Translations under genes and position numbers: made by a program
Part shown: positions 2,866 through 58,860 of the stretch, one piece after another
Position numbering within the stretch: position 1 is the stretch's first letter
Layout of the letters: each line of letters opens with the position of its first letter
Assembly (NCBI RefSeq): GCF_006345805.1
Contig: NC_042997.1
Location: 90,458,001 to 90,522,000 of the forward strand
DNA: 64,000 nucleotides
Reading direction: 5' to 3'
From: Octopus sinensis
Taxonomy: Eukaryota
Notes under the pieces: model-generated
What the model was told of the DNA's origin: nothing
The model's database searches: none
The model's input: the letters and a program-made list of their open reading frames with translations, nothing else

Positions 2866-2928
2866 TTTGAGTACGTCAACGTTTCAAGATTAGCCAAATA
2901 AAATCAGCATTTCTTTCGTCAGCTCAAA
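2866..2928 (-). ncRNA. Type I hammerhead ribozyme (copy 1)
   Basis: Minus strand: TTTGAG-CTGACGA-[AAGA...TCTT stem II]-GAAA-CGTTGACG-TA-CTCAAA. Stem I is TTTGAG/CTCAAA and the cleavage triplet is GUA. Confidence 0.85.
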
Positions 2929-3432
2929 ATTCTTATTTGGATTTGGGAACACTAAAAAGAAGGAACTTTACCTATCAGCGAACTTGTCGCTTCAGATGAA
3001 CCACTCCAACTAAACAGTGTCAACAAATTCAAAATGCGCAGGCGTAAAATTCTGCACTCCCCATTCCACCCACGTGGTCTATCTAGCAAACATCATATTT
3101 TAACCGCGAGAACCGAGGCAGTATGACCGAGAGAAATGAATTATAATATCAACAATTGAGGGTAAAATTAATTAATTAATCAATTTCACCAAGTGTTCAG
3201 TATGTAAAAGGACCATTTAAGGCGAATTCAAAATATTACATTATATAATTAGGGCTTAGTAAAATAAATTACTTTGCCACATACTGAACTTAGTAGAAAT
3301 AGCAGCCAAAAAAAAAAAATTTTCTTAGCATTTCTACTACTTAAAGAAAATTTCTCTCAGATAATGTTTACTCCAGACAGCTCACGAAGGTTTGGGGGTA
3401 AATACAGAAAAATATCACAAGTACATAGATCG

Positions 3433-3495
3433 TTTGAGTACGTCAACGTTTCAAGATTAGCCAAATAAAATCAGCATTTCTTTCGTCAGCTCAAA
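3433..3495 (-). ncRNA. Type I hammerhead ribozyme (copy 2)
   Basis: Same motif as 2866-2928, one repeat unit (567 bp) away. Confidence 0.85.
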
Positions 3496-4129
3496 ATTTC
3501 TTAATTTGGATTTGGGAACACTAAAAAGAAGGAACTTTACCTATCAGCGAACTTGTCGCTTCAGATGAACCACTCCAACTAAACAGTGTCAACAAATTCA
3601 AAATGCGCAAGCGTAAAATTCTGCACTCCCCATTCCACCCACGTGGTCTATCTAGCAAACATCATATTTTAACCGCGAGAACCGAGGCAGTATGACCGAG
3701 AGAAATGAATTATAATATCAACAATTGAGGGTAAAATTAATTAATTAATCAATTTCACCAAGTGTTCAGTATGTAAAAGGACCATTTAAGGCGAATTCAA
3801 AATATTACATTATATAATTAGGGCTTAGTAAAATAAATTACTTTGCCACATACTGAACTTAGTAGAAATAGCAGCCAAAAAAAATTAATTTTACCCTCAA
3901 TTGTTGATATTATAATTCATTTCTCTCGGTCAAACTGCCTCGGTTCTCGCGGTTAAAATATAGTGTTTGCTAGATAGACCACGTGGGTGGAATGGGGAGT
4001 GCAGAATTTTACGCCTGCGCATTTTGAATTTGTTGACACTGTTTAGCTGGAGTGGTTCATCTGAAGCGACAAGTTCGCTGATAGGTAAAGTTCCTTCTTT
4101 TTAGTGTTTCCAAATCCAAATTAAGAAAT

Positions 4130-4192
4130 TTTGAGCTGACGAAAGAAATGCTGATTTTATTTGGCTAATCTTGAAACGTTGACGTACTCAAA
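4130..4192 (+). ncRNA. Type I hammerhead ribozyme (copy 3, inverted arm)
   Basis: TTTGAG(4130) CTGACGA(4136) AAGAAATGCTGATTTTATTTGGCTAATCTT GAAA(4173) CGTTGACG TA(4185-4186) CTCAAA. Confidence 0.85.
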
Positions 4193-4487
4193 CGATCTAT
4201 GTACTTGTGATATTTTTCTGTATTTACCCCCAAACCTTCGTGAGCTGTCTGGAGTAAACATTATCTGAGAGAAATTTTCTTTAAGTAGTAGAAATGCTAA
4301 GAAAATTTTTTTTTTTTGGCTGCTATTTCTACTAAGTTCAGTATGTGGCAAAGTAATTTACTTTACTAAGCCCTAATTATATAATGTAATATTTTGAATT
4401 CGCCTTAAATGGTCCTTTTACTGAACACTTGGTGAAATTGATTAATTAATTAATTTTACCCTCAATTGTTGATATATATATATATAT

Positions 4488-4553
<66 letters not shown>

Positions 4554-4554
4554 C

Positions 4555-4613
<59 letters not shown>

Positions 4614-4618
4614 AGGTT

Positions 4619-4718
4619 TCTTTTACTGATGAAGTGTGACCTATGGTAGACTAGCTTAATTTAATTAATTAAGCTGGTCTATCATTAAAGACACTGAAAC
4701 GATGCATCGTATAAAAGA
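4619..4718 (+). ncRNA. Type I hammerhead ribozyme with very long stem II (second family), within a ~240-bp (TA)n-flanked element at 4611-4850
   Basis: TCTTTTA CTGATGA(4626) AGTGT...ACACT GAAA(4696) CGATGCATCG TA TAAAAGA. It has a 7-bp stem I and a palindromic stem III (ACGATGCATCGT). Confidence 0.85.
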
Positions 4719-5616
4719 TGAATTAGGGTAAATGTTTTTAAATTTTCACCTTATTTCCGAATTACACTACTTGGCGGTTGGAGTTCTGGCTGCTCTTTCT
4801 GGTGGATGAATGGCCTGTTTAGGCCATTCCTAAATTGTTATATTTATATTTATATATATATATATATATGCTTCAGAGCATATATATAAGACACTGAGTT
4901 CTAGACTTGTTAAAAGCTAAGCTTCCCCCCACCCCCGGATCTTTACGTTCTGCTTTCAAATCCCGCCGTGTTCAACTTTTCTTTTCATGCTTGCAGCGTT
5001 CAGAAAATAAATGTCAAGTACGGTTGACTTCTCCGTCCCCATCCAAATCTGTGGTTTTATGTTTATGCGAGAAGTAATTACTTTCTGGTATTGTAGCAGC
5101 TAGCTTGCTTTACAGAAATATTCTTATCATGTTGCGTCAAGAAATGAGATTAATCGATAACTTTATTAATAATCATTGCTGACCTCTTTATTATTAAGGC
5201 AATTAATAAGATTGGATTAGTTCCACTGTTTTCAATATCAGAGCTATGTACACGGGCTAAATATGGTGATTAGGGAAAATGCAAAAGGCATCTTCACACA
5301 CAACTAACTCATCAACTCTGCAAACATCACAATGAGCATTGTTAAGCAAAACGTTTCATTGGTGCCGCAGCCGTGATGCAGGTTTGTGTCTGCGGTTTCG
5401 ATTTCCGGGAACTGCGATGTGACTTTATTTATATTGTAAATACTCTTAGAAAAGTGACGGATATCAAGGCTTCTCGTTTCATTTTAAATTCAAATAAAAA
5501 GCCTCTGTGTCGTGTTAAAGGAGAAAGGAAATTCCACAAAAAGTGGCTGGTTATTGTCTTCTTCTTCTTCCAATTAGGACTCACGCCATTATTCACAAAG
5601 AATAATCACTAATTTG

Positions 5617-5748
5617 ACCCTCCCCGCCGGAGCCTCGTGGAGCTTGGGTGTTTTTGCTCAATAAACACTCACAAAAGGTTTGGGAATCGAAACCACGTTC
5701 TTATGACCGCGAGTCCGCTGCACTAACCACTGGGCCATTGCGCCTCCA
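5617..5748 (-). mobile_element. tRNA-derived SINE family D, 5' fragment
   Basis: Reverse complement reads GGAGGCGCAATGGCCCAGTGGTTAG...GGTTTCGATTCCC, homologous to 49322-49632. Confidence 0.75.
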
Positions 5749-6009
5749 CGCTGGTTGTTGCTATTACAGCAGCTGTAGTTGCAATTGCAGTTATTGTAGC
5801 GCTGGCGTTGCTGCTGTTGCTGCTGCTGTTATTGTTGTTGTTTGTTAGCTTCGAGTCAACCCCTGAACCGATCTCCGTCGTGGCCATCTTGTCTTCTTTT
5901 TGTTTCCAGGCATAGTGTACCGTGGAAAACATTATTCAATTTGCCTTGCTTTTCTTTTAAGACAGAAGGGTGCGATATGCGAATTAGATTATCTTTTATT
6001 TTCTATCTT

Positions 6010-6423
6010 CTATCTTTTACTTGTTTCAGCCATTAGGCTGCGGCCATGCTGGAACACAGCTATGAAGAATTTTTAGTTGAATGAATCGACCCCAGTACTC
6101 ATTTTCTTTAGGCCTAGTACCCATTCTATCAGTCTATTTTGCCGAACCACTAATTACAGGGACGTACACACACCAACACTGGTTGTCAAGCTGTGGTAGA
6201 GGACAAACACAGACACAAAAACATGCAAACACACGCACACAAACACACAGACACATTTACGACTGGCTTCTTTCAGTTTCCATCTACCAAATCCTCTCAC
6301 AAGGTTTTGGTCGCCCCGAGACTATAGTAGAAGACACTTGCCCGAGGTGCCATGCATGAGAGCTGAACTCAGAACCAAAGGCTTGGGAAGCAAGCCTTTT
6401 ACCACACAGCAACGCCTGCACCT
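6010..6423 (-). mobile_element. tRNA-derived SINE family A
   Basis: Homologous along its length to 9986-10468 and 39622-40003. Confidence 0.8.
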
Positions 6424-6919
6424 ATTAGGCTACTATTTCCTGCAAGTCGAGGAACAGTTAGTGGTTTCTTCATTGGCTGATACTTAGCACACGTGAGAGG
6501 AGATAAAGTGGGTATTGGGGGTGGTATGAAACTGCCTGCGGTAATTATTTAAGTTAAAACGACACTTAGACTATTTTTTAAGTTTCTTGAGATTCAAATC
6601 ACAAGACTGTATACACACACAAACACGCACCTATATAAGTACACACAGACACACAGACACACACACAAACACGCACCTATATAAGTACACACACACACAC
6701 ACACACACACACCACACACAAGCACGCAAACACACACACACGCATGCAAGCATGCGCGCCCACACTTGCATAAATAAGAGGTTTAAGTGACAGACAGATG
6801 GACAGATAAATGTGCTGATAAAGGCAGTTACAAGAGGGAAAGCAGGTAGACAGACGGACCGAAAGGCTGATCGACAAACAGACAGACAGACAGACAGATA
6901 GACAGACAGGTAGATAGGT

Positions 6920-7861: not shown

Positions 7862-9401
7862 TAAATAAAATATATATAGGCATATATACATACATATATG
7901 TACATACTGACATATATATACATATATATGTCAGTATGTACATATATTTATGTATGTATATATGCCTATATATATATTTTATTTATGAAAGGCGAATTCA
8001 ATCTCGGCAGATTTTAAACTCAGAACGTAAAGACGGACGAAATGCTACTAAGCACTTTGTCCGGCATGCTAAAGATTCTGCCAGCTCGCCGCCTTGTGAC
8101 CGTACTTCATATTTAAGTATCAGTAAGACGGCAAGCTGGCAGAATGGTTATCACGCCGGGCGAACTACATAGCAGCATTTAGTCCGTCATTACGTTTTCA
8201 GTTCGAATTCCGCCGTGATCGACTTTGCCTGTCATCCTTTAGGCGTCGATAAAATAAGTACCAGTTGATCATTGGAGTCGATGTAATCGACATACGTCCT
8301 CCCGTGGAATTGCTGGCCTTGTGTCAAAACGTGAAATCAATATTATGTTTCAGAGGTTATTTTATATATTTTTCTGAAACCAATTTAATAAGCTGTATTT
8401 GACGTTGAATGTAATATAAGCGATTCATTCAAATTTAAATACAAAACACCAGGAAAAAAGAGAGATATGAAAGGAAAAGGAAAAGGAGGTGGTAAAGCAG
8501 CAGAAGTTGAAAGGGGAGAGGGCAATGGATCACACATCCCAAACCAAATGGTGTCCTCAGCTGCGCCGGTAATGATCGTGATGGCGTTGCTGCAGAGAAT
8601 GGCCAACGACATTCGCTACTGCAGCCACTCCACCTCGCAGGACTCACTTCTCCGATGGGCTGCCGTCATCCCTATTTTACTGAAGAAATCTGTAGTACAG
8701 GATCCTTAAATCACCAAGCCCCTATAATTATTGATTTTCCTTTCTTCTGCATCACGAGCGGCGACACCCGGGTTTGCAGCCGACGCTGCAAGATTGGAAC
8801 CGGCGAACGTGTCGCTGCTTGCCACGTCCCACTGGTTATTGTTTATTGTAGTTATTTTTGTTGATGTTGTTACTGTACCTGTTGTGGTTCTCGTTGTAGT
8901 CGTTACTGTTGTTATGCTGTTTTATTTTATTGACGCCATTACTGCTTCTGTTGACGACAACGACAATAATGATGATGATGATGATGATGCTCATCGTGAT
9001 ATATCGCCAGATGGCAATCATTTTTTTTCCTTTACGCTCTTGCTATTTTTGTTGCTTTTCTTCCGCTTTCTATCTGGTTTCCTCTTTTTCACCCCACTTC
9101 TTCCACATTCTATACTTCCGCCTCCGCATCAACATCATCATGATCATGATCATGATCATCATTGTCATGATCATTATTATTACCATCATAATCATCATCG
9201 TCATCATTGTCAACATCATCATTGTCAACATCATCACTGTCACCAGCAAGTGACACGCGCGCAAGCGCTTTGAATTTGCAACAAATATGAGCATATCTTA
9301 TATAGATTTCTGGGAATATTGTTGTTGTTGTTGTTGTTGCTGTTGCTCTTCTTCTTCTTCTTCCTCCTCTTCTTCTTCTTCTTCTTCTTCTTCTTCTTCT
9401 T

Positions 9402-9985: not shown

Positions 9986-10199
9986 GTACTCTTTTACTCT
10001 TTTACTTGTTTCAGTAATTTGACTGCGGCCATGCTGGAGCACCGCCTTTAGTCGACCAACTCGACCCCGGGACTTATTCTTTGTAAGCCAAGTACTTATT
10101 CTATCGGTCTCTTTTGCCGAACCGCTAAGTGACGGGGACGTAAATACACCAGCATCGGTTGTCAAGCAATGCTAGGGGGACAGACACAGACACAAACAT

Positions 10200-10257
<58 letters not shown>

Positions 10258-10468
10258 TATATTATATATATATATATAATATATATATATATACATACAT
10301 ATATACGACGGGCTTCTTTCAGTTTCCGTCTACGAAATCGACTCACAAGGCTTTGGTCGGCCCGAGGCTATAGTAGAAGACACTTGCCCAAGGTGCCACG
10401 CAGTGGGACTGAACCAGGAACCATGTGGTTTGTAGGCAAGCTACTTACCACACAGCCACTCCTGCGCC
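9986..10468 (-). mobile_element. tRNA-derived SINE family A, full length, with internal (TA)/(TG) microsatellite
   Basis: Head GGCGCAGGAGTGGCTGTGTGGTAAG...GGTTCAGTCCC, then CCTTGGGCAAGT, and a (GTAAAAGA)n tail. About ten homologous copies occur in the window. Confidence 0.85.
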
Positions 10469-10825
10469 TATGTGTGTGACAATTTTTATTAAATTGTATT
10501 ACATATATTAGCACGTAGTTTCCTGTCTTACTCTTATGTTTTTGTCCTCTAAATGCTAAGAAATTTTATTTGGGAACTTCACCAACTCATTGATGTTTGC
10601 TGCAATGGATGCAGCCAGATAGCTTGTCTTCGGACTTTAAACATGTCAAAACTTCGGTGATTCTGAGTAAAGAGAGGTGTTCCATATTTTATCGCCTTTT
10701 CCGTTATCCCATATCCAATTCGACATTTGCTCCAAGGTTTCTAACATCTTACTAGTTATATTATTACTGTTGTATAGATGTGTATATATATATATACACA
10801 CATCTTACTACTTATATTGTTACTG

Positions 10826-13082: not shown

Positions 13083-13083
13083 A

Positions 13084-15908: not shown

Positions 15909-16559
15909 CATACATATATACATATATACATATATACATATATATATCTACAAGAATAAAGCACCATAAAAGGTAGAATTATAAATAGCAATGATCGTAC
16001 TTCATGTTCTTCCGCTTTGTGTCCTGTACACAATGTGTATTTTTCATTTTATTTATCTATAATTGAATGCCACTCAGCCTTGACTACGGTAAGTCCTTAC
16101 CTCTATATATGATTTCTGCAACTACATACTGTTTTGTTTCTTTCTCTCATCGTCTCTCTTGTCCCCCTTCCCCTCGGCTTTTGTTAATTACACAGGCCAT
16201 TTTCTCGCGCGCCTGTCTTTTCTTGACTAGATGTGCACCGGGTTGGACGTCATTTTATGTTTTACTGAAGAGTGGCAGAAATAGCCTGAAACCAGGACTG
16301 GTCTGCCGGTACCGTCGCTAGAAAGTGGTAGGGGTTCGCTCCTCCGCTTGCAATTTATCGCATACTGCCCTGCATCGTTAACCAGCTAGAAGAGATATCC
16401 TTTTGGAGTTAAAATATCGCAGTAGAGTCCGTTTGCACAGACAGCCATGTTGAAGTGGCTAGGAATATTACCCCCGACATTTTTCTTCTACTATTTTCCT
16501 CTCTTCTAATTATTCTATTCTACTATTTTCTAACGCCGATTATTTCCTGTGTTCTTATC

Positions 16560-17238
16560 TCAGGCCAGGACTGAATACATAAACAAGTGCCTGTCCAACA
16601 GTGATTGCATCATCCATACTCTCAATAATGCGCCCTTAAATATGGTTTCTGATTACAAATATCTTGGGTCATACGTATCATCATCTGGAAAAGACTTTCT
16701 AACTAGAAAGGGTATGGCCTGGTCAGCCTGTAATGACATGCATAAGATCTGGTCATCAAATCTAAGTAGAGACTTCAAACTTGAAATCTTCAAAGCCACA
16801 GTCGAACCAATTCTACTATATGGCTCAGAAACCTGGACGTTATCAAAGAAGCTTGAGAGGCGGTTGGATGGAACCTACACTCGCCTCCTTATGAGAGCTC
16901 AAAATCTCTCGTGGAAGCGCCATCCAACCAAAATGCAAATATATGGGAAACTACCACCTGTGTCATCTCTTGTGAAAGGTAAGAAATTCCAGTTTGCTGG
17001 ACATTGCTGTAGAGTTGAAAAAGAGGTAATTTCTACTCTTGAAAAAGAGGTAATTTCCTCTGGAAGCCATCTACTCGCAATACCAGAGGGCGCACACTCT
17101 CCTGCCCTGATGTAATCTCCAGGGATACAGGCATCCAGCAACAGGACCTCCGTAATGCCATGATGGACCGTGAAGTCTGGCGTAGCATGGTAAATTCCAT
17201 TGTCTCGACCATGGTCGAACAATGATGATGATGAATGA
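16560..17238 (+). mobile_element. 5'-truncated RTE-clade LINE 3' end
   Basis: ORF 16549-17115 contains YKYLGS...VEPILLYGSETWTL...TYTRLLMRAQNLSW...FAGH, the RT thumb/C-terminal region of RTE elements. It ends in a (TGA)n tail at about 17222-17238. Confidence 0.9.
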
Positions 17239-17530
17239 TTATCTCCCCCTTGTAAACATAAGGACACAGGAAATGTGTCAAGGCTGACAGGAAGCGTTGC
17301 TGCTTCCTAGGGCTAAATAGCAGAAGTCTGATTCCCATCATGGGACTGTCACATTAAGTTGACAGTATACAACTACTCTATCGTACCACTACTGCATATA
17401 TCTCTCTGAGATATTTAGAAATGTAATATTTTTATTTTTGTAATCAGTGGATTTATTTCACTAGAATTCTTATATGTTTACAAGGGCTAGGTGGACATCT
17501 CCAACTAGCAGGTTCATCCAACTAGCAGGC

Positions 17531-19207
17531 TCACAGAAGTGTTTGTGTCGGTTATTTTGTATTTGCGGTTTTGAATTGGATTTGTCGATTATTGTTGTTG
17601 AAAACTGTTGCGTCGTGTTGAATTGTTGGATTTTTTGTTGGGTATGCCAGCCCAAACTTATGCGGGAGCAGCAGGCAAAGGCCTGGCTGCGAACGAATTA
17701 CAGTTGGAAGAAATAATTGTCGAAAAGGAAAATTTGAGGACATACTACGACAGCTTCAAGAAGGAATGTGACTGTCTGAGGGTTACACCACCTGAAGACG
17801 AAGTGAAAGAAGCGGAGAAAAAAATCGTAACATACAGAACGTAGAATGTGGTCTCAAAGAGAATAGAAGTAGCAGAGGTGGAAGAGATTGAGTAATGTCT
17901 ACAGGAAATTAAAGGAAGAACTACCTTCTACAATAGAGGTAGAAAATACGCTACGGTAGACGTCCGTTTTGAAAATGAAGACGAAGCGAAGAGAAACGCC
18001 ACGACAGTGTTGAGATAGGAAAAATGGGTTTTACTTCCTAGTTATTGTGGGAAAATAGCAGTGAGGATACGAATAAGCAAAATCCCACCGGAACTTGATA
18101 CCGAAAGAATAGTAGCTGCAATTATCTACAACTGCAAAGAGAGCGTGGACATACTTAAGGTGGAAAAGTCGAAAGAAATAAACTGGTGGGGTTATGCGGT
18201 GCAGGCTTCGGTCCACATAACCATGCCAGATTTGTACAACATCTTGAGGAGATGGTGTTCCCCGACGAGACACGACTGAGAGTCGTGGTGGAGGGGATAC
18301 CTCCAGGTGTTATAAATGTAAGAGCAGAGGGCACATGAAGGATGTGTGTCCTCAAAGAGAAATACAAGAGAAGACGATAACACTGGAGGAAGGAATGGAG
18401 GCTTTGACAGAGGAGTTAGAAAAGGAGAATGTAGAATTGCAAGCGGAAGAGGAAATCGTGACAACAAATAATGAGGAAAGTGGCGACGAGTTAGTGAAGG
18501 AGAAAGAAAAGGAAAGAACAGAAGAAAAAGATAACAGAAAGCGAACACGGATGGAATCACCACCCAAAGACCAAAAGAAGAAAAAAGCTAAAAAGAAGTC
18601 TGCCGACGAGACTGAGGAGAGAACACACGAAGGGAGAGATATAGCAACTAAAGTGAGTGAAGGTTCAACATGGGATGAAACGAAAGAATGGTCAACAAAA
18701 GTGGAAGAATGTCTGAAAACATGCAAGGAAGGAGGAAGACCAAAAGGAAGAAATCTCAAAGCTGTAATGTTGTACAAAAAGGATAAAGAAATTGAGAAAA
18801 AATTAGCGATAATGAAAAATCTAACGAGAGTGAAATTGAACTCGAGGATATACGATAACCAAATAAAGGCTGCAATTGTGGATAAAGAGACGGTAAATGA
18901 ATTAATAAATGTGTTTACAAATACAGCTGTGTGCATTGCGCACTACGTTCGATATGACAGTTTGCCCGGCGTTATAGAACAGGATGAATTACTCGTTTAA
19001 ATTACTGACGAACACCCCAGATAGTACAACTGTAATTGTAAATGAAACTGCGAGCTTTGGGGGGCTCGTAGGCCATTTCATTTAATTCATTATTTATATT
19101 TCATTTCATATCATCCTTTCTGTATTTTTGTTATATGTACCCCATGTCCTGTATTGTATTGTTATGACCCCTCTTCATTCGGGCCATTGTGCCTATAATA
19201 AAGATAC
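17531..19207 (+). mobile_element. ORF1-only non-LTR element (L1/Tx1-type gag-like ORF1; HAL1-like), degenerate
   Basis: 13-bp TSD CCAACTAGCAGGC at 17518-17530 and 19208-19220. Broken ORF from MPAQTYAGAAGK (17644) to a stop at 19000, with zinc knuckle CYKCKSRGHMKDVC (CX2CX4HX4C, 18308-18349) and a Glu/Lys-rich tail. AATAAA at 19197. No EN/RT is present. Confidence 0.8.
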
Positions 19208-19230
19208 CCAACTAGCAGGCCATGCTACTC

Positions 19231-19270
19231 CAGACTGATGACGAGCAAAGACTCAGAAACTAGTCTCCGA
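19231..19270 (+). ncRNA. Minimal type I hammerhead ribozyme (stem I with mismatch)
   Basis: CAGA CTGATGA(19235) C-GAG-CAAAGA-CTC-A GAAA(19256) CTAG TC TCCG. Palindromic stem III ACTAGT and a GUC site. Confidence 0.65.
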
Positions 19271-19565
19271 ATGCAGGTTTAGCTGGGTGGAGGTGCTTAT
19301 CTCCCGCTTGTAAACATAAGGACACAGGAAATGTGTCAAGGCCCACAGGAAGCGTTGCTGCTTCATAGGGCTAAATAGTGGAAGTGAGTTAGAACATTAA
19401 AACTTAGAGTGCATGGGCAGTAGAGATCAAGGTCAGCCTTTGCCAAGCGGCTTCACTCTGTGTGCTTTAGCTTCGTTACCATGACAACAGTCTGAATGCT
19501 TATTGATCAGACCCCGTAAATGTATGCATGTATGTATACACACACGCTCACACACACACATATCA

Positions 19566-22585: not shown

Positions 22586-23579
22586 CTTCACGCTTATATA
22601 CTATATTTTCAGTAAAAATATCTACCCCCCTTCTCCCTCTGTCTTCCCCCTTTCTCTCACTCTCTCTTCACTGATGGAGAGCCCTTCACTCAATCTTCTT
22701 GTCTCCTTACCGATGTTTCTCGTATACTATAACAATGCATTGCACATGTATGTATTGTTAATCAGAATACTGTTTTACAATCGCAATAAAATGAATTTAC
22801 ATATCTCTCTTTCAGAACTTCTCCAAAACTAGTTTCCCATACTTTTGCATGAAAGAATTAAAACATTAAGTTTTCGTATGAATGAATTATAAAAATGATT
22901 AATGTTATTTTTTCGTCATCATATAATTATTTCTAGTTAAATTTTAACTGTTTATTCATTTAAATGTATACAAATTACGTTAACTATTGTATTTTATTCT
23001 TTTTTTGTATGTGTGTGTGCGTGTGGATGCCCTCCACGGGTTATTGTATAAACAATTCTATTTCCCTGCATCAACCAATATACAATAGTGATTCTCATAT
23101 CAATATTCCGTTAAGTATAATAAAGTCGATGCTTATTAATGAGACCGAAACTTATTCTGAGTGTAATTAAAATAGTATCAGACATTAACTAATTTCTTTC
23201 TTTTACGACGCTTCATAACTATTTCAAGTTAGCTTTTTAGTGTTCTTGTATTAAAAGTGTTAGCACCAAATTATCTAAGTATTTTAAATATTAATCTGCT
23301 ATTGAACTATACTATTCAATCTCCACAAAATTTCTCACAGATTATCAGTTAATTTAATAGTCATTTAGCGCTAGAGGCATAGGTTATTTGAACTAATGAG
23401 CAACTTAGGAAAGTGTCACGCCTCGAATAGAAGTTGGCGACGATAGTCAATCCCAAAAGTATGAACAAATTAACAACTGAAATTTTAATGGCATTCCTGA
23501 GACACTTAGTGTTCTTTTAAAGTTCAGGTCAGTGCTTATCTTATTTACTAGAATTGATATCTTTTATATTATTATATTC

Positions 23580-23976
23580 TTTTCTACTCTAGGCACAAGG
23601 CCCGAAATTTGGGGGGAGAATTCCAGTCGATTAGATCCGACCCCAGTATGCAACTGGTACTTAATTTATCGACCTAGTAAGGATGAAAGGCAAAGTCGAC
23701 TTCGGCGGAATTTGAACTCAGAACGTAAAGACAGACGAAATACCTATTTCTTTACTACCCAGAAGGGGCTAAACACAGAGGCGACAAACAAGGACAGACA
23801 AACGGATTAAGTCGATTACATCGACCCCAGTGCGTAACTGGTACTTAATTTATCGACCCCAAAAGGATGAAAGGCAAAGTCGACCGAGGCGGAATTTGAA
23901 CTCAGAGCGTAACGGCAGACGAAATACAGCTAAGCATTTTGCCCGGCGTGCTAACGTTTCTGTGAACACACCGCCT
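23580..23976 (-). mobile_element. SINE family B, dimeric variant
   Basis: Two tandem copies of the GGATGAAAGGCAAAGTCGAC...GGAATTTGAACTCAG segment joined by a fixed linker. The same layout is at 31615-32008. Confidence 0.8.
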
Positions 23977-24085
23977 TCGTTTATATTATATTAACCAGGT
24001 AATTATCATTATTTATTAGTGGGGTGTGGGAGGAGGGTACTAATGAAGAGAGGAGGTAGGTAGGAGTGAAGAGAGAAGTTAGGTG

Positions 24086-24997
24086 TCAGATGAAGAGAGG
24101 AGATGCGTTGAGCCCATATAGTGCAAATGAGTGAAGAGAGAAGATTAATTCCTGTTCACAGCGAAGGCGGGAGTCCGGGTGGCCCTTGTGCAAAAGTAGT
24201 CTGAACACAGACAGATGTTGTAGTGAATGACCGGTAGAGCGGAAATGCCGCGAGGCCGGGATGTTATTGCGGAGTCTGATGTCTCAGAGGAGCTTCGCGA
24301 ACCGGTCAGCCAAGCGGCGTTCCATTTGACTGTTGTACAGGGAAGAGCAGAAAGAGCAGGAGATGCAGTAAATGACGTTACTGGAAGTGCAGGTAAAGGA
24401 GTCGGTGATGTGATGGGGACGATGATGGGTGCTTGTGAGGACGGTGGTGTTGGAGAGGTAGAGACAGGTGCGACAGCGTGGACGGATGCAAGGGAGGCGG
24501 GGTTAGCTAAGAAAATGTGGACCAGGAGGTCACGCAGGTTATGGGCTCGATGGAAAGGGGTAAGTTGAGGAAGAAGTGCAAGGTCGAGGGGTCGGACTAG
24601 AGTCGCCGAAAGGCTCGAAGAATGATGCGTTGGTAGGGCAGTATGAAGAGGTGGTAGGAGTTGGGAAACGGAAGACGAGCAAGGGCAGTGTGGATAGTGG
24701 TGAGGGGATATCCACGTAAGATGAAGTGGTGAGCCATGAGTTGAGACTGAGTCTCAAAGTCATGGTTGTCACTGCAGAGCCTGCTCAGACGGAGGAATTG
24801 GGAGTAAGAGATGGAGAGCTTGGTGTGGGTAGAATGGGAGGAGGAGAAGTTAAGGTAGCAGTGTGAGTCAGTATGTTTGGAGTAGATGGAGGTAGTGAGA
24901 GCGGAATGCTATATACTGGCAGAAATGTCGAGAAATTAGACAGAAGAGTTAGAAATAGTGCAGAAGAATTCGAGGGCAGGATGAAAGGAAAGGACAA
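24086..24997 (-). mobile_element. Penelope-like retroelement (Neptune-type) RT C-terminus plus GIY-YIG endonuclease, degenerate
   Basis: Manual translation: SFHPALEF...FLDIS...[21 protein letters not shown]...[12 protein letters not shown]...RGYP...NLRDLLVH...CIRPRCRTC...FTCTSSNVIYCISCSFC...RRLADRF...HF...EQELIFSL...GLN. Confidence 0.9.
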
Positions 24998-25145
24998 ATA
25001 TACACGCATATGTGTGAGTCTATATATATATATATATATATATATAGTAAATTCCCCGCCCCCCAAAAAACGAAGAACAAACTCAAGAAAAAAAGTAACG
25101 ACGCGAAGACGCGGTGTGTGGATGTGTGTTGTGTGTGTGTGTGTA

Positions 25146-25631: not shown

Positions 25632-25790
25632 CATATATACATACTTACATGCAGGTATACATACATACATACATACATACATACATACATACATACATAC
25701 ATACATGCACAGCAGAGTGAAGGTAAGAACAAGAAAAAAGCTGGTATCGGTTTAGATCATGGCATTTATGTTTTTAAATATATTTGGCTA
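25481..25790. repeat. ~90-bp inverted repeat around a microsatellite spacer
   Basis: TTTAAAAACATAAATGCCATGATCTAAACCGATACCAG...CTTACCTTCACTCTGCTGTGCATGTAT (about 25481-25575) is the reverse complement of about 25695-25790. Confidence 0.85.
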
Positions 25791-25809
25791 GTATGCTGTC
25801 AGCGGACGC

Positions 25810-25853
25810 CTGCCACTGAAGAAATTCAGTTGACTGAAATCGTGATCTGGCAG
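25810..25853 (+). ncRNA. Minimal type I hammerhead ribozyme (third family)
   Basis: CTGCCA CTGAAGA(25816) AATTCAGTTGACT GAAA(25836) TCGTGA TC TGGCAG. Perfect 6-bp stem I, AUC site, weak stem II. Confidence 0.75.
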
Positions 25854-26134
25854 TTCTAGCGTCAATAACAAGCGATTCTAGCCTTCTATGATATATGTCT
25901 GCTTTTGTGCACCATATGAGAGAACCTTTCAAATCTAATACCGCAGTATTCGGTGTTCTAACAAGATATTCACATTAAGTTGGACATATAAATTGCCTTT
26001 TGATGATAGCACTGCTTCCGCTGCAAATAATGTAAAGAAGATTTATAATTTTATGCATTTAATGATATATCGATGAATAGTAAAAGTGAAATAATCTTAG
26101 CAAAGAGTTGTAGATGTTACACGTTTATGTTTAA

Positions 26135-31262: not shown

Positions 31263-31614
31263 CTATCAATGGTCAACATGCGGTACTCACCGGAAGTTAA
31301 TTCAACAAGAGACATTCATTCCGGATTCTGTCAAACTGATAGAAAAATCTACTAAATTAAGGGTTTCCAACCGAGATCCTTATGATCCCTGGGGGGGGGG
31401 GGTCCTTATAATATGTTAGTGGGTGGCAAGGACGCGAAATACTAAATTGGGGATCCTCAGTAGTATTTTAAATTTTCATGAAAACATTTTGCGTTACATG
31501 TATGTATTGCAAAAAACAACTACGTTACTTTCTCTAACGTGTTCCATTGTTCAACATGTTTCCGACTATTGAAACATTCTGTCAGAGAACGCTGTTGCAA
31601 ACCTATACAAGTCC

Positions 31615-32008
31615 TTTCTATTACAGGTAAAAGGCCTGAAATTTGGGTAGGAGAATAGTCGATTACATCGACCCCAGTACTCAAGTGGTACGTAATTTAT
31701 CGACCCCGAAAGGATGAAAGGCAAAGTCGATCTCGGTGGAGTTTGAACTCAGAACGTAGCGGTAAACGAAATGCCTATTTCTTTACTACCCACAATGGGC
31801 TAAACACAGAGGAGACAAACAAGGACAGACAAACGGATTAAGTCGATTATATCGACCCCAGTGCGTAACTGTTACATATTTAATCGACCCCGAAAGGATG
31901 AAAGGCAAAATCGACCTCGGCGGAATTTGAACTCAGAACGTAGCGGTAAACGAAATACCGCTAAGCATTTCGCCCGGCGTGCTAACGATTCTGCCAACTC
32001 GCAGCCTT
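31615..32008 (-). mobile_element. SINE family B, dimeric variant
   Basis: Same composite as 23580-23976. Confidence 0.8.
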
Positions 32009-33329
32009 AATGCAAGCTTATACAAGTGAATGCGAATTTTGAAAGTAGTATCATTACGGAGCCTGTCAATTTGATAGAAATATCTCCTTAATCAGGGGTT
32101 TTCAGTTACGATCCTTATGATCCATGGCAGACCGTTATAAGATTTTGGAGGCAGGTGCCCGCAAGCTAAATGGTAAATTGGGAATTCTCAATCGTATTGT
32201 TGTAACTACGTTTCTTTCTCTAATGTTTTCCATTGATAACATGTTTCCGACCACTAAAACATTCTGCCTGAGAGTATTATTGCAAACCTACACAAGTGAA
32301 TGCGAATTTCGAAGTAGTATCAATAAAACTGGGTTTTTTTCTCTAAACATCGAATGGCTATGGTTATTCACCAGTGTAAAACAGTAAGCAAAATGGTTCC
32401 TAAGTAAAACAAAAAAAAAAAAAGTTCAGAACTACTATACTCGACCCTTCAACTTCCACTTTTACGAGTGATCAAAGCCGGCGGCATGTGAATTCAGTTC
32501 TTAAAAAAAAATTAAACAGTCGCAACTGAATATCATTTGATATTTAACCACTTCTTATGACGTTATGTTCTCAGTTCAAATTCCACCTATATCGACATTT
32601 CCTTTCATCGACCCCTTTTCGGGATCGATGAAATAATTATCACACAAGTACTGGGATTGATATAATCGATTTACCCCCTCCATCAAAAACTGCCGGTTTT
32701 ATGCCAAAATTAGAAAGAATTTTGCAAATCCTAGAATTTAAGGTTTAATTAAAAGCTGTTTAAGATTAGAATGTTCAGACTGGAATTAGTTATTAGTGTT
32801 GGGATTTTAATTCAGGACACGGAACAAGGTTTAGTGAATTGATTGAACGCCATGCATTCTTTTCCAGGTAAGTTTTATTCTAATAATTCTGATGCGACTC
32901 TCTATTCTTCTTATTTCTCTTTCGTTTTTTCTCTCTTCCTTTCTCTTATTCTTTTACCTCCTCTCACTATTCTACCCTTTTCTCTTTCGTTTTCTCCCTT
33001 ACTTTCTCTTATTCTTTTACCTCCTCTACTCCCACTATTCTATCCTTTTACTCTTTCGTTTTCTCTCTTCCTTTCTCTTATTCTTTTACCTCCCTTCTCC
33101 CTTTCTTTTTTCTCTCTTATGCTATATCCAAATCTTTTCCTCTTCCCTTCACAGTTCTCTGTCTGCCACTCTCTCTCCCTCACTCTTCCTCCTTTTCTCA
33201 CGTGACTCCCACGTGACCATCGGCCATTTTTCTTCCTTCTTCTAACTTTTGTGTTTCTTTCTTTCTTCCTGAAGCAGCTGGACAAGGAAGACGCTTCCTA
33301 CCACAGCCACAATACACACACACACACAT

Positions 33330-38533: not shown

Positions 38534-38732
38534 TGACCACGTGTGTACCGTTGGCGATGATTTTCCTCTGTCTTCCCTTCTCTGGATCTTTCCCTCTCCT
38601 ATGTTTCCGACGAAGAGCTCCGCTCGGAACGTTAAGCCCTCCTTCTTTCCTTCTTTCCTGAGCGTCCAATAATACTATATTTGTTCCTCGTCCTCGCGTT
38701 GTGTTTTTGTGCTTTCATGTTTGGATTAACTA
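38534..38732 (+). repeat. ~200-bp microsatellite-flanked repeat with mutated hammerhead core
   Basis: Homologous to 42258-42465; the core reads CCGACGA...GGAA instead of CTGACGA...GAAA. Confidence 0.75.
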
Positions 38733-38804
38733 TATATATACGTATATCCATGAATATTATTACCATGTATATTTTCTGAGGCCCTAATATATTATATATT
38801 CTAT

Positions 38805-38998: not shown

Positions 38999-39621
38999 TA
39001 TATATACACTCACACAAATATTCTTTTATTCTTTTACTTGTTTCAGTCATTTGACTGTGGTCATGCTGCAGAACCGCCTTTAGCCAAAGAAATCAATCCC
39101 AGGACTTATTCTTTGTGACTGTAGTACTTATTCTATCGGTCATTTTTGCCAAAAAGCGATTGAGTAGTCATTGCTGACGAGCTCACGACTGATAAGCGGA
39201 GCAAGTCTTGTCCAGTAATCTCTAGAGTCTTTCATCGGGAGGTTATATTGTGCGCTTCATACAGCCTTAAAACGTTTTTACCTACAATCGTTTTGCAGTA
39301 TAGGTGCTTCGGCATCCTCAAACCCAATAAATGACGATTAAAGTTTTCCTTTTCGGTTTTATATTGGGCCTAGGTGTTTGATTCAGACACCTTGATACTC
39401 TGAGTTTCAAGCGCGATGCATAGGAATTCATAGGAATTTGAATAAATATGCGTTTGTGTGTGTATGTACATATACATAACACACACACACATGCATGCAT
39501 ACATACATACATACATACATACATACATACATACATACATACATACATACATACATACATACATACATACATACATACATACATTCATACATACATACAT
39601 ATATATGTGTGTGTGTTATAT

Positions 39622-40003
39622 AGGCGCAGGCATGGCTGTGTGGTAAGTAGTTTGCTTACCAACCACATGGTTCTGAGATCAGTCCCTCTGCGTGGCACCT
39701 TGGGCTAGTGTCTTCTACTATAGCCTCGGGCCGACCAAAGCCTTGTGAATAGATTTGGTAGACGGAAACTGAAAGAAACCCGTCGTATATATATATTCAA
39801 ATCACAGACGCGTTTCTGTGTCTGTGTTTGTCCCCAGATCATCGCTTGACAACCGATGTTGGTGTGTTTACGTCTCCGCAATCTAGCGGTTCGGCAAAAG
39901 AGACCGATACGAGAAGTACTAGGCTAAAAAAGAATAAGCCGTGGGGTCTATTTGTTCGACTAAAGGCAGTGCTCCAGCAAGGCCGTAGTCCAATGACTGA
40001 AAT
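39622..40003 (+). mobile_element. SINE family A
   Basis: GGCGCAGGCATGGCTGTGTGGTAAG head; full body. Confidence 0.85.
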
Positions 40004-42054: not shown

Positions 42055-42326
42055 AATAATAAGGGTAGAGAAATGATATTAATCAATTAAAACCAGTGGC
42101 TTAGCATATTTAAAAGATCCGAAGATTAAAAATTGTGTTACATACAAAATTTAGAGGAATGATCACTAAAGTGGACACCCTTTATGCTAAACATAGACGT
42201 CAAATTGCCATTACCACGAAGAATGTGGTAAAAAGACAATATATATATATATAAATGTGACCGCGTGTGTACCGTTGGTGATTTTTTTCTTCCGTCTTCC
42301 CTTCTTTGGGTCTTTCCTTTTCCTAT

Positions 42327-42361
42327 GTTTCTGACGAAGAGCTCCGCTCGAAACGTTAAAC
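42327..42361 (+). ncRNA. Minimal hammerhead ribozyme motif in a ~200-bp repeat (42258-42465)
   Basis: GTTT CTGACGA(42331) A-GAGC-TCC-GCTC GAAA(42350) CG TT AAAC. Stem III is reduced to the palindrome ACGT. Confidence 0.7.
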
Positions 42362-42510
42362 CCTCCTTCTTCCCTTCTTTCCTGATCGTCCAATAATACT
42401 ATACTTGTTCCACATCCTCGCGTTGTTGTGTTTTTCTCTTGTGTTTTCATGATTGGATTAACTATAACACACACACACATATATATCATAGTGTATATAT
42501 ATATTATATA

Positions 42511-42810: not shown

Positions 42811-44410
42811 AAGTACATGTATATATGTATGTATGTATATATGTATGTATACATGTATGTATACATGCATGTATGTATGTATGTATGTATGCATGCATGA
42901 GTGCATGGATGTATGCATTTATATATGTGTATGTGTGTTTGTTTCCTTCACAGCTTGATACCCGGTGCTGGTTTGTTAACATCCCCATAACTTAACAACA
43001 GTAACCAACAGAATAAGTACCAGACTTTAAAAAAAAGCACTGATGTCGATTGATCCAAATTTTAGCACAAGACTAACAATTTTGGGTAGGGGTGGTAAAT
43101 CAATTACATCGACCCCAGTGCTCAGCTGGTACTTGTTTTATCGACCACGAAACATAGAAAATCAAAGTCCCTCGACGAAATTTGAACTGAGAACGTAAAG
43201 ACGGGCGAAATGCCTCTAAACAAACGATTCTGCCAGCTAACCCCCTTAAGGCAATAATAATAATAACCTTTTCTATTATAGACACAAGACCTGAAAATTT
43301 GGGGGAGGGGGCTCGTCGATTACACCGACTCCAGTGCTCAATTGGTATTTATTTCATCGACCCCGAAAGGATGAAAGGCAAAGTTGACTTCGGCGGAATT
43401 TGAACTCAGAACGTAGGGACGAACGAAATACCGCTAAGCATTTTGCCCTGCGTGCAAACGGTTCTGCCAGCTCGCCACCTTAAGTTAATAAGTAATAATA
43501 ATAATAATGATAATAATAATGACAATAATAATAATAATTAGAATAATTAGAATAATAATAATTACAACAACAACACAATGGAGTGTGAGTTGCGGGAGAT
43601 TTGGCTGTTATGTTTAGTTTGTCAATGACAACTTTTGAGAGGCTCCCTTCTCCCGTGTTGGAGTCAGTACTGTGATGATGGTGTAGCGGTCGTGTAATGT
43701 GTGTTTGCTTCAACCATGGTTGTATACTGTTGTTATTGTTATTGTTATTGTTGTTGTTTCTGTTGCTATAGTAGTTATTGTTGTTGCTACTATTGTTACT
43801 GTTATTATTGTTGTGATATTTGTTATTGTTGTTATTTGAGTTGTTGTTATACCATTGTTGTTAATTGTTGATGTTTTTGTTGTCAGTAACGTCTTTGTTG
43901 TTCTGTTTGTTCGTTTTTGACTGATTGCAAAGATTTGTCTTCTACGGACATCCGGGTCAATTAATTACCTATCAGTGGCTAATTATGGGGTATCGTTACA
44001 GTTTCAAATGGAGTGAGGTGGTCGTTGTGTGTTGCATACTCAAACAGACGTGACAGAGGTGGTGGGCAGATGCTACCGGAAGACTATGGTGGTCTGGTTA
44101 ATAGAAATGGTAGGAAGTAGAAAGATTATGACCGTAGAGATGGTGGGAATCGATTACAAGACCTGTTATTGTTGTTGTTGTTGTTGTTATTTTTCATCCC
44201 AGGGTCAAACCTAATCAAGCAGATATATAATCAAAGACACACCAGCTGCGATCAACTCGCCTTTTTAAGTGTATGGTATGCAGTAGCAGTCCTCAAACTT
44301 CGCTTTTTCTCACCACATACTGGTTTCATGCAAGACAATTTTTCTGCGGATCTGGGAATCATAGGTATAACAAAACACAGTAAAGTGCATAATATATCAT
44401 TCAATTATTG

Positions 44411-51819: not shown

Positions 51820-52183
51820 TTCTTTTATTCTTTTACTTGTTTCAGTCATTTGTTTGCGGCCATGCTGGAGTGCCGCCTTAAAGGGCTTTTTAGTCGAAGA
51901 AATCGACTCCAAGATTTATTCTTGTAAGTCTGATACTTATTCTATTTGTCTGTTTTGCCGAACTGCTAACTTACGGAAACATGTCAACATGTAAAGCAAT
52001 AGTGGAAGAACAAACACAGACACTAAGACACACACAAATACGCATAAATATATACATATATGTATACACACACACACGGTGGGCTTCTTTCAGTTTTCGT
52101 CTACCAAATCCACTTACAAGATTTTGGTCGGCCCGAGTCTATAGTAGAAGATATTTACCCAAGGTGCCATGCAGTGGGAATGA
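51820..52183 (-). mobile_element. SINE family A, head lost at the junction with Tc1
   Basis: Homologous to 9986-10468. Confidence 0.8.
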
Positions 52184-52184
52184 A

Positions 52185-53347
52185 CGAGGTGTGGACACGT
52201 ACAAAGTTTGAATTGTTTCCAAAGGAATTTTTGTCCTTTCTTCAGCTAAAATAGTCTCCAGTTCTTGTAGTGATGATAGTGGAGGATAACGACTCCTTAT
52301 TTGTTTTTCTAAAATGCACCGCAAATGTTCAATAATATTGAGATCTGGGGACTGTGGTGGCCAGATAAGATGTTCAACTTCACAAGAATATTGCTCATGC
52401 CATTCAGTAACAACTTTAGCTGTGTGAATTGGTGCATTATCATCCTGAAAGATTGCGTTTCCCCTCCGTAAACAGTTCCACAACCATAGGATTAATTTGA
52501 TCAGATAAATTCTTAAATAGTCTGCCATGAAGGGAAACCATTGGACTGGCTGAGTTCCAAGATATATCCCCCCCAAATCATCACAGATCCTCCTCCATGT
52601 TTAACAGTTGGAAGAAGGCAGAATGAGTCAAATGCTTCTTTTGGCTGTCTCCACGTGTATATTTGACCGGTGGTCGGAAATACGGTAAAGGATGACTCGT
52701 CCAAGAAAATAACATATTTCCACTGCCCTAGGGACCAATTCTGTAGGTTTTTACTCCACTCTAAACGCTTTACAACGTATGCTTTTGAAAGTAGTGGTTA
52801 TCTGATTACAGCCCTCCCGGGAAATTCGGCTTTGTGCAGCTCCCGGCGAACAGTTTTTGTGGAAACTGGGTTCTTGAGGTGGTCATTAAGTTCTGCAGTA
52901 ATTCTGGGAGCTGCACTTTTGTGATCCTTTCTAACAATTCGTGTAAGAGTCCGACGGTCCCTATCTAAAAGTTTTGATTTTATTCCAGAGTTTTGTTTCG
53001 ACGAAGAGGTTTTTTCTTCCTTCATAAAGGCTGTCATTACTTTCAAGACAATACTTCTTGATACACCAAACATTTTGGCTGTTTTCGTTATGCTAGCGCC
53101 TGTCATACGAGCACCAACAATTTGACTTCTTTGAAGGTCCGATAGAGCTGTCATTTTAATGAATTTTAATTACCTATTTTCTGATGATATCTGAAAAGAA
53201 ACAGCAATTTTAGCAAAACATATTATGCAACATTAATAATAAATAAAAAAAACATATAAAAATAAACAAGCTTTTAACAGTTTTATAGATATTTCAAAAT
53301 TATGATGATATGATGCTAGGTGTTTCCATTATTTTGTCCAACCCCTG
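52185..53347 (-). mobile_element. Tc1-family DNA transposon, degenerate DD34E transposase, one TIR retained
   Basis: Paired-like HTH N-terminus (ORF 52798-53154), DESSF, VKHGGGSVMIWG, and FQDDNAPIH...WPPQSPDLNIIE. TIR TA|CAGGGGTTGGACAAAATAATGGAAACACC at 53347. Stops and frameshifts are present. Confidence 0.93.

Positions 53348-55700: not shown

Positions 55701-55743
<43 letters not shown>

Positions 55744-55744
<1 letters not shown>

Positions 55745-56457: not shown

Positions 56458-56459
<2 letters not shown>
55744..56459 (-). mobile_element. R4/Dong-clade non-LTR retrotransposon 3' end (CCHC plus restriction-like endonuclease), inserted in (TAA)n
   Basis: Manual translation: PKCRFCNDDIETIDHLISGC...KWYKHHPE...ILWDFPVHTDKTIKANKPDIIIKD...VPVIVGSLG...QKIVL...HVLRRAL*. 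Flanked on both sides by (TAA)n. Confidence 0.88.
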
Positions 56460-56540
<81 letters not shown>

Positions 56541-56592
56541 TATTATTATTATTATTATTAGCAACAGCAGCAGTAGCAGTAGTAGTGGTAGT

Positions 56593-56663
<71 letters not shown>

Positions 56664-56960
56664 CAGCAGCAGCGGCGGCGGCGGCAACAGCAGCAGTGGC
56701 AGCAGCAGTAGCAACTATAATTTAACACAATAATAATGCAAATGGCATGCTCCAAAATTTTATCCATTAAGCATAATTGAAATGAAGTATATTAGAAGTA
56801 TTTATTTCATGGCGGTACGTATATATAGATTTTGTTTTACATATGTACACATATACACATGTATATGCAAGCATATATATGCATAAATATATGTATGTGT
56901 CTGTTTATATTTATATAAATATATATATATATATATGTGTATATATATATGTGTGTGTGT

Positions 56961-57034
<74 letters not shown>

Positions 57035-57139
57035 ACATTCATGCATACATATATATATATGTACCCGTGAAAAGAAGTTTCATTATTGGGTTTGGAATTT
57101 TATCTTGCAATTGATTACACCAAGGTTTGGAGAAGGAAA

Positions 57140-57186
<47 letters not shown>

Positions 57187-57454
57187 GCACTCTCTCTCTC
57201 ACTCTATCTCACAATCTCTCTCTCCCTCTGCCCCTCTCTCTCTCTCTCTGTCTATATATATATCAGAAGTAAAAGAGTAACTCAAAGGCCGAAAGTTTCG
57301 TGAGTTGGCAGTATGCATGTGTGTATGTATGTATGTATGTATGTATGTATGTATGTATGTATGTATGTATGTATGTATGAATGGATGGATGGATGGATGG
57401 ATGCTTGTAAAATTATTTCTATTATAACTCGATATAAAAACAAGCATTAATAAG

Positions 57455-57845
57455 TGTGTGGTAAGAAATTTGTTTCCTAAAGATAGCGTCACTGCGTGGA
57501 GTCTTGTGACATAGGCAAGTGCCACCTGCTACAGCCCTGAGGTGGACAAAGCCTTGTGAATGAATTGTGAATGGAAACTGAATAGCAGCCCATCGCCTAT
57601 GTGTGGTGTATATATATATATACATCTGTGAATGTGAATGTGTGCGTGCGCGTGTGCGTGTATGTGTGCCTCTCTCTCTGTTCTTGGTTTGTTTGCATCC
57701 CATAACATAGCGGTCCGACAAAAGGAGACCGAAAGAATGAGCACCAGACTTTAAAATTAACTACTGGTGTCGATCTGTTCCACTAAAAGCCTTCAAGCCT
57801 GTGCCCCAAAATGGCTGCAGCCCGACGACTGAAACAAGCAAAGTC
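57455..57845 (+). mobile_element. SINE family A, diverged
   Basis: Homologous to 39622-40003. Confidence 0.7.
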
Positions 57846-57851
57846 AAAGTT

Positions 57852-57889
<38 letters not shown>

Positions 57890-57971
57890 TGTGTGTGTGT
57901 GCGTGGTGTGTGTGTGTGTGTGTGTGTGTCTGTGTGTCTGTCTGTCTGTCTGTATGTGTGTGTCTGTGTGA

Positions 57972-58302
57972 AGGCGCATGGCTCAGTGGTTAGAGCAGCG
58001 AGCTTACGATCGTGAGGTTGTGAGTTCGAATCCTGGACCGGGCTACGTGTTGTGCTCTTAAGCAAGACACTTTATTTCACGTTGCTCCAGTTCACGCAGC
58101 TGTTGAAATGAGCTGCGACATACAGGTGTCAAATTGTATCGGCCTTTGCCTTTCCCTTGGATAACATCGGTGGCGTGGAGAGGGGAGGCTGGTATGCATG
58201 GGCGACTGCTGGTCTTTCATAAACAACCTTGTCCGGACTTGCGCCTGAGAGGGTAACTTTTCTAGGTGCAATCCCATGGTCAGTCATCACCGAAGGGGGT
58301 CT
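57972..58302 (+). mobile_element. tRNA-derived SINE family C (CORE-like central segment)
   Basis: GGCGCATGGCTCAGTGGTTAGAGC...GAGTTCGAATCC followed by GTTGTGCTCTTAAGCAAGACACTTTA. Confidence 0.85.
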
Positions 58303-58860
58303 CAGCATATATATATATTTCAGAGTAAGCACATAAATGTGAAACAAGATGGAAAAAGGAGTACTCACATACTAGAGGTAGAGTTATGTGCTTTATTTAA
58401 AAGCAGCAGAAATATAACATTAAAACACTTACTCAGTTTCACGTTCCCGTTCGTTGGACAGTTTTGTTAGAATGGAACAGAAATGACGATACAATCAAAC
58501 AAAAACAAAAAAAACTAGTTTAAAGGATACGTCTTTGAAAATGGCTTTGCTTCATTGGTTCTTTCAACTAACGGTCTTAAGCATGCAATGATCAAAATAA
58601 ATTCAGTATAAATTCATCCTATTGTAAAATCGAAGGAAACCTTAAATCGAAGAACAGATTCCAAATACATATGGTAAATAATCATATACGAAATAGAAGT
58701 CAATTAATACATTTAAATTAAAATTAAAAATTTCACGCTATATTATATAAATATTTTTTCAGCAGTATATACGCATACTAGACCATCTATAATATACATA
58801 TATACACCAAAATACACAGATGCATGTACATAGTTATATATGTATTTAGACAAACATATA

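Follow-up and report, generated by a model that had tools for sequence, protein, structure and literature searches.

The window analysed here is a 64,000-nucleotide stretch of the Octopus sinensis genome (NCBI RefSeq assembly GCF_006345805.1, contig NC_042997.1, forward-strand positions 90,458,001 to 90,522,000; position 1 is its first letter). All 11 hammerhead ribozyme motifs named there by the original prediction, an earlier reading of the letters alone, are members of real type I hammerhead repeat families, seven in number, of which at least two are related. The repeats that hold these folds are short and non-coding, and Penelope-like elements (PLEs) most probably copy them in trans, one superfamily (family 3 and its relatives) being a repeated insertion site of Tx1-like long interspersed nuclear elements (LINEs), as well as of a derivative with only the first open reading frame (ORF1), which likely borrow the promoter of the repeat. 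New here is the recurrent insertion of a Tx1-like LINE and an ORF1-only element just before the ribozyme; the hammerhead-PLE arrangement itself was already known. Features of the window are collected in Table 1.

The family 3 unit of the window is interrupted at 17513-19207 by the ORF1-only element, just before stem I, with a 12-bp duplication on either side; the original prediction noted neither this element nor its preference for the site. The 3' end of this element gave 84 exact genome matches. The first 30, among which three pairs share one locus, comprised 21 ends followed by a hammerhead unit, 3 followed by a second copy at the same site and 6 followed by other DNA, yielding 24 ends on site. 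A wider set, partly chosen via the target, gave 75 of 81 ends on site by our own classing. Five of the six off-target copies were 5'-truncated and had duplications of 15-16 bp in unique DNA; 5'-truncated copies with a duplication were also found on the target (loci L128 and L119). Near-identical elements occurred in at least five target subfamilies. Many relatives retained open frames of 440-470 amino acids, and 24 ORF1-only proteins formed one group, 25-32% identical to nine autonomous ORF1s. The median ratio of non-synonymous to synonymous substitution (dN/dS) in this group was 0.20 over 151 non-independent pairs, and ORF1 of the element is, to judge from substitution ratios, under purifying selection. 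With an ORF1, no reverse transcriptase (RT), its own 3' end and its own duplications, the element is HAL1-like. Carriage of ORF1 as cargo of a Penelope-type element was rejected as the main route by the duplications and the off-target copies. At L167, L168, L171 and L182 three or four ORF1-only elements stand in a row, 1.7 kb apart, as a result of recurring insertion at a single site. ORF1-like frames were also found upstream of family 6 hammerheads (L278, L279), which suggests the same targeting in that family.

Intact autonomous relatives carry a CCHC-knuckle ORF1 and an ORF2 of 1,134 amino acids with an apurinic/apyrimidinic endonuclease (APE), an RT and a zinc motif. The best 30 ORF2 matches were taken as a sample, from which two without a 3' end were dropped. 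The 28 remaining ends were followed by a hammerhead unit (22, with an intact core in 19), by a tandem copy (3), by the upstream flank of a unit only (1), by a U2 gene (1) and by (TA)n (1), so that 26/28 were on the hammerhead site. A duplication was present at 21/25 loci, and the junction lay 32-38 bases before the core. Across element families, insertions were found 20-39 bases before the core with duplications of 12-21 bp, tandem re-insertions included. The target subfamilies have diverged in sequence, and the insertion position relative to the core has been retained. Target specificity (26/28 autonomous and 24/30 ORF1-only ends) exceeds the figure used to define it in Tx1 elements, which is that more than 20% of flanks lie in one repeat. 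Among named proteins the nearest RT relative came from Argonauta hians (65%), and RT scores were 256-306 bits to proteins named TX1 by their source and 212 bits to human L1 ORF2; the RT tree, built without an L1 row, was weak at its deep nodes. The APE-RT elements likely belong to the Tx1 clade on these RT comparisons. In a sister group of elements (L217-L224, L395-L411) insertions lie at fixed positions of several further repeats, in many cases some 30 bases past an AT-rich box; the target repeats of this group gave no Rfam match.

At locus L306 (G000:C3:19723000-19732500) a full-length LINE was found before base 1 of a full U2 small nuclear RNA gene in a U2 pair. Behind the U2 duplication stood a 14-base leader identical to the start of a hammerhead-unit target, and at L309 a donor leader took the place of the expected duplication. 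The donor leaders at both loci begin at the same base; further extra leaders were found at L091 and L411. From such leaders we infer that the LINE transcript starts in the target. AT-rich, TATA-like boxes were noted by eye about 30 bases upstream in several target types. The TATA-like bases of family 3 are also predicted to pair with sequence beyond the ribozyme, and may therefore be kept for folding instead. Co-transcription with the target as an aid to integration has been discussed for R2 and other elements (PMC4494074).

The APE-RT elements would insert by target-primed reverse transcription, the site and the duplications being observed, and the ORF1-only element would use the ORF2 of its partner. 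The insertion site would be at or near the transcription start of the unit. LINE RNA would then start in the target and read into the downstream ribozyme, and its target-derived ends would anneal at the new site. Cutting by the hammerhead may be conjectured to form the LINE 3' end; the AATAAA signal argues also for ordinary polyadenylation. A scheme of three tiers is offered tentatively, with more doubt than confidence: Penelope elements would move the ribozyme repeats; Tx1-like LINEs would home to RNA polymerase II start sites (ribozyme repeats, U2 and other repeats) and take the target promoter, the target hammerhead cutting the LINE RNA so that its tail matches the next target; and the ORF1-only element would ride on both.

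Rather unlikely, in our judgement, is that the LINE finds its site by the DNA preference of the endonuclease alone, promoter and ribozyme being incidental. Such preference is the accepted rule for Tx1 elements (PMC4494074), off-target sites look like the usual target over its first 4-6 bases, and the opening bases of U2 are also those of the target. However, 4-6 bases are insufficient for hits of 80-90% in a small fraction of a 2.7-Gb genome, targets widely different in sequence are entered at a constant position relative to the core, and the common first base of the L306 and L309 donor leaders also speaks for more than endonuclease preference.

Copying of the repeats in trans was assessed from families 1 and 2, whose units (567 and 475 bp) hold no coding frame and whose copies are 97-100% identical. 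Thirty loci of each were fetched; duplicates (4 in family 1, 11 in family 2) were dropped, as were loci that ran past the ends of the fetched sequence (1 and 4). Inverted arms were present at 18/25 family 1 and 7/15 family 2 loci, more than one unit per arm at 15/25 and 11/15, and (TA)n on both sides at 19/25 and 12/15, against a background of 7% per side. In both families 3' ends lay at two preferred positions about 90 bases apart. Partial tandems, an inverted 5'-truncated arm and two fixed 3' ends are the layout of a non-autonomous PLE and agree with the description of PLE copies in PMC8557442. They also fit RT initiation at two internal sites (PMC11167929), though tails there are shorter. 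By layout, families 1 and 2 are likely young non-autonomous PLEs, that is, non-LTR (long terminal repeat) retrozymes. The Penelope-type context and the small (TA)n-flanked repeats of the original prediction are supported by these counts. A 360-bp non-coding tandem unit with a type I hammerhead was also found at L216. The end region of family 1 (window 3698-3840) is common to other, more abundant sequences and weakly to family 2; it is possibly a shared RT recognition region.

In the proposed copying cycle, two hammerheads of a tandem transcript would pair via the palindromic stem III and release RNA of unit length or in circular form. This RNA would be the template from which a Penelope RT/GIY-YIG protein writes copies into (TA)n, beginning at two internal points; arms in tandem, an inverted arm truncated at its 5' end and a pair of fixed 3' ends would be the outcome. 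Three units folded as circles gave z values of -5 to -8 against 40 shuffles. Stem III had a predicted energy of -1.7 to -18.7 kcal/mol in duplex form, against 0 to -2 kcal/mol for the hairpin; predicted stability as a duplex only is in line with the dimer proposed from the palindromes. Dimer cleavage of PLE hammerheads was reportedly described by Lunse and others in 2017. Assembled contigs of runs presumed to be RNA cover the units, such contigs being uninformative on ends or strand, and none of them spans a unit-LINE junction.

No RT/GIY-YIG frame was found in the hammerhead units of the window, the only such sequence being the separate broken fragment at 24071-24998. Family 5 aligned to an RT/GIY-YIG element in its 3' repeat (E 1.6e-7, 70% over 136 nt); a hammerhead motif was present at 18/25 loci of that element family, to which the broken fragment belongs, and its relatives carry a family 5-like motif in the 3' repeat. 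In the first PLE family searched nothing matched the units of the window, its sole hammerhead-like motif being deviant, and families 4 and 6 showed no link to a PLE terminal repeat in the two PLE families examined. An abundant RT/GIY-YIG element (L357-L379) has a 3' hammerhead-like motif with U replacing core A6. A second abundant Penelope-type family (L325-L354) combines a deviant hammerhead-like motif with an internal run of (TA)n in the 3' region. The resemblance of family 5 to a PLE 3' repeat, and the truncation or decay of several window copies, would suit a view of the small units as no more than truncated, dead ends left by autonomous Penelope elements, with no propagation of the unit as such. 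This is improbable against the whole-unit head-to-tail arrays of families 1 and 2, their 97-100% identity and the lack of an RT frame in the arrays.

At L040, L113, L115 and L119 each of the two inverted arms bears a LINE 3' end together with a ribozyme. These Penelope-type arms indicate that LINE-hammerhead composites are also re-copied by Penelope machinery. Such arms, with their (TA)n ends, would also be expected had one or a few LINE landings in a hammerhead unit been followed by amplification of the composite through that machinery. We regard that history as quite improbable as the source of the site preference, since one LINE subfamily occupies at least five target subfamilies and U2, and tandem re-insertions, like 5'-truncated copies, come with duplications of their own.

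The hammerhead folds themselves were examined by motif scan and covariation. Type I hammerheads were defined by CUGANGA and GAAA boxes, a UH site, three stems and type I order. The strict descriptor found five cores in the window (2922-, 3489-, 4136+, 4626+ and 42331+), against a mean of 0.045 and a maximum of 1 in 200 block-wise dinucleotide shuffles, the kind of background that the original prediction had proposed. A relaxed descriptor found seven against 0.54, the additional cores being 25816 and 38607. Strict and relaxed scans thus recovered 5/11 and 7/11 named motifs; the six outside the strict scan are mismatched, truncated or broken copies of real families. Motif coordinates and stem III palindromes were as first described. 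The three motifs first called degenerate (16265, 39174 and 58422) are real damaged family members, and other copies of the 39174 and 58422 families retain core and stems; 19231 is mismatched, and in 38607 the GAAA box is broken. Of 294 Rfam matches, the 150 listed include no hammerhead family.

The families had been called unrelated. Several families do exist, and the word is too strong for 16265 and 19231: 6/19 relatives of 16265 matched the profile of the 19231 superfamily (best E 8e-11), linking families 6 and 3. The family 3 profile did not match families 1, 2, 4, 5 or 39174. Covariation could be read in the family 3 superfamily, the copies of families 1 and 2 being 97-100% identical. A set of 72 distinct motifs was picked only by the core and the position after a LINE 3' end. 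Nine stem positions were 90% paired against 69% with swapped partners (0/2,000), a control that ignores relatedness, and most stem columns held two to four Watson-Crick types. Position 3-8 was C-G in 43 motifs, U-A in 12, U-G in 13 and C-A in 4. Stem III was self-complementary in 66/72 motifs with 20 different strings, under a parse that favours palindromes. In 18 spread representatives, which included broken and mis-parsed copies, pairing was 73% against 59%. The covariation proposed as a test is present in this superfamily.

Genome-wide abundance was estimated from twenty 10-kb stretches at hand-picked round coordinates (200 kb), which held 5 intact motifs against 0.03 in shuffles. Extrapolation gives about 68,000 intact motifs (Poisson range 22,000-160,000). 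First-look matches, which are candidates and not copy numbers, were 1,986 for family 1, 1,659 for family 2, 2,300 for family 3, 140 for family 4, 3,196 for family 5, 1,121 for family 6 and 24 for the 39174 family. The very large ribozyme population first proposed agrees with these figures; the density of one motif per 6 kb was overstated, as it counts dead and tandem copies, and the three family 1 motifs at 2866, 3433 and 4130 are real cores of one insertion. The window is not unusual in hammerhead density, because its five intact motifs represent three insertion events in 64 kb, matching 5/200 kb elsewhere. Chance motifs, or host-kept ribozymes cutting a pre-mRNA in the window, are barely credible given the enrichment over shuffles, the repeat-family membership, the broken state of half the window copies, the use of both strands and the lack of any exon found.

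Several points weigh against parts of the explanation preferred here, trans-copied ribozyme repeats that serve as a LINE target. The partner-swapped control leaves kinship aside, and the stem III parse is biased to palindromes. Predicted monomer folds misfold the hammerhead core, and PLE minimal hammerheads cleave weakly in vitro (PMC4209133); hammerhead cleavage, transcript ends and RNA circles are predicted here from sequence and models. Neither of the two PLE families examined yielded an autonomous Penelope partner for family 1, 2 or 3. On the LINE side, the junction offset from the core varies from 20 to 39 bases between element families, the two hammerhead-targeting LINE groups form no supported clade, and the sister group (81-84%) inserts in other repeats at 6/6 and 7/9 resolved loci (of 20). 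Some same-subfamily copies may stem from one insertion. The start-site reading draws on one U2 case and a few leaders, and the extra leader of the window copy and of L091 could be a local duplication.

Table 1. Hammerhead repeats and other features of the window (positions in the 64,000-nucleotide stretch)
Feature	Position	Strand	Description
Family 1 insertion	2685..4473	.	About two tandem 567-bp non-coding units and an inverted arm, between (TA)n runs
Family 1 cores	2922 (-), 3489 (-), 4136 (+)		Predicted cuts after 2872, 3439 and 4186
Family 2	4611..4846	+	5'-truncated copy of 475-bp unit, core 4626, long stem II; 12-nt palindromic stem III; ends in (TA)n at the usual 3' end of the family
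Family 6 copy	16263..16471	+	Starts 2 bases before core 16265, so half of stem I is gone; related to family 3
LINE 3' fragment, RTE-like	16558..17238	+	Adjoins family 3 copy, outside ribozyme unit
Family 3 unit, upstream part	17236..17512	+	Ends with first 12-bp duplication copy, 17501-17512
ORF1-only retroelement	17513..19207	+	Zinc-knuckle ORF1 from 17644 to about 19000, disrupted (stops, frameshifts); RT absent; hairpin at the 3' end with AATAAA, 19182-19202
Family 3 hammerhead	19208..19380	+	Second duplication copy 19208-19219, core 19235, predicted cut after 19265; one stem I point mismatch, absent from 3'-flank relatives
Penelope-like element, broken 3' part	24071..24998	-	RT end and GIY-YIG region, autonomous type
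Family 4	25782..25960	+	Old copy, core 25816, stem II mismatch, shortened stem III
Family 5 copy	38534..38734	+	Core 38607, GAAA box broken
Old low-copy hammerhead family, decayed copy	39160..39250	+	Core 39174, GAAA box lost
Family 5	42258..42466	+	Minimal hammerhead, core 42331, 4-nt palindromic stem III
Another abundant hammerhead family, decayed copy	58330..58620	-	Core 58457-58451, mutated
SINE-like family A	7985-8350, 23568-23977, 31612-32010, 43056-43483
SINE-like family B	6020-6425, 10007-10471, 39620-40002

The window is 36% GC, rich in microsatellites and about half repeat. The fragment at 16558..17238 is likely RTE-like, to judge from its motifs and tail. The two abundant families resembling short interspersed nuclear elements (SINEs) include several inverted pairs with microsatellite-filled centres, and an apparent hammerhead remnant near 23960, beyond the PLE fragment, was rejected as part of a SINE. 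A broken Tc1/mariner transposase (HTH, helix-turn-helix, and DDE_3) lies at 52139-53169 (-), and a direct duplication of 1.1 kb with 95.5% identity at 59353-61538. No host-gene domain was above the Pfam cut-off in 135 unique-region frames of 48 amino acids or more, the sole domain being part of an RT at 2-184. Should the window be intronic, sense copies might cleave pre-mRNA, as the original prediction proposed.

For metazoan PLEs, genomes with many hammerhead families, and folding as dimers, have been described (PMC4209133). The minimal hammerheads described there share with those of the window the type I core, the extra base before stem II, the palindromic stem III, the U3-A8 variant, the presence of many families per genome and the location of most copies away from RT; families 1 and 2 differ in their long stem II, and an estimated tens of thousands of intact copies are present here. 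No report of hammerheads of this kind in this animal group was found in the literature searched. Non-LTR retrozymes (PMC7229834, bioRxiv 10.64898/2026.07.22.740005) are likewise tandem and non-coding, with units of 300-570 bp that each hold a single type I hammerhead, and are likely non-autonomous derivatives of PLEs. The units here differ in their strong (TA)n preference, inverted arms and nested LINEs.

Tx1L in Tx1D, Tx1-Mar in Mariner-N4 and Keno in U2 (PMC4494074, PMC4640811) share with the nested LINEs the zinc-knuckle ORF1, the APE-RT, a fixed site in a multicopy element and tandem insertions. The present case differs from these target-specific LINEs in that the target is a ribozyme-bearing retroelement, in the single U2 insertion at base 1 and in the donor-target leaders. 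HAL1 (half-L1; PMC5753468) is similarly non-autonomous and encodes ORF1p only, whereas the element here belongs to a site-specific Tx1-like invertebrate lineage and its ORF1 is 25-32% identical to those of its autonomous partners. A 2026 octopus repeat annotation (PMC13282606) reported active L1-Tx1 and Penelope families; a term search of its main text found no mention of hammerhead, ribozyme or retrozyme. No paper on a Tx1 element with a hammerhead, ribozyme or retrozyme target was found, and Repbase, subscription papers or supplements could hold one.

By itself, the hammerhead collection extends a known pattern to another animal group. With the nested LINEs, a ribozyme-bearing retroelement joins the list of Tx1 targets. 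The ORF1-only element is site-specific and, on its substitution ratios, under selection, and the leaders mark the likely start of the transcript of the repeat. With young intact copies of both target and LINE, the role of PLE hammerheads in vivo becomes open to test, as does the way in which a LINE holds its position while its target drifts.

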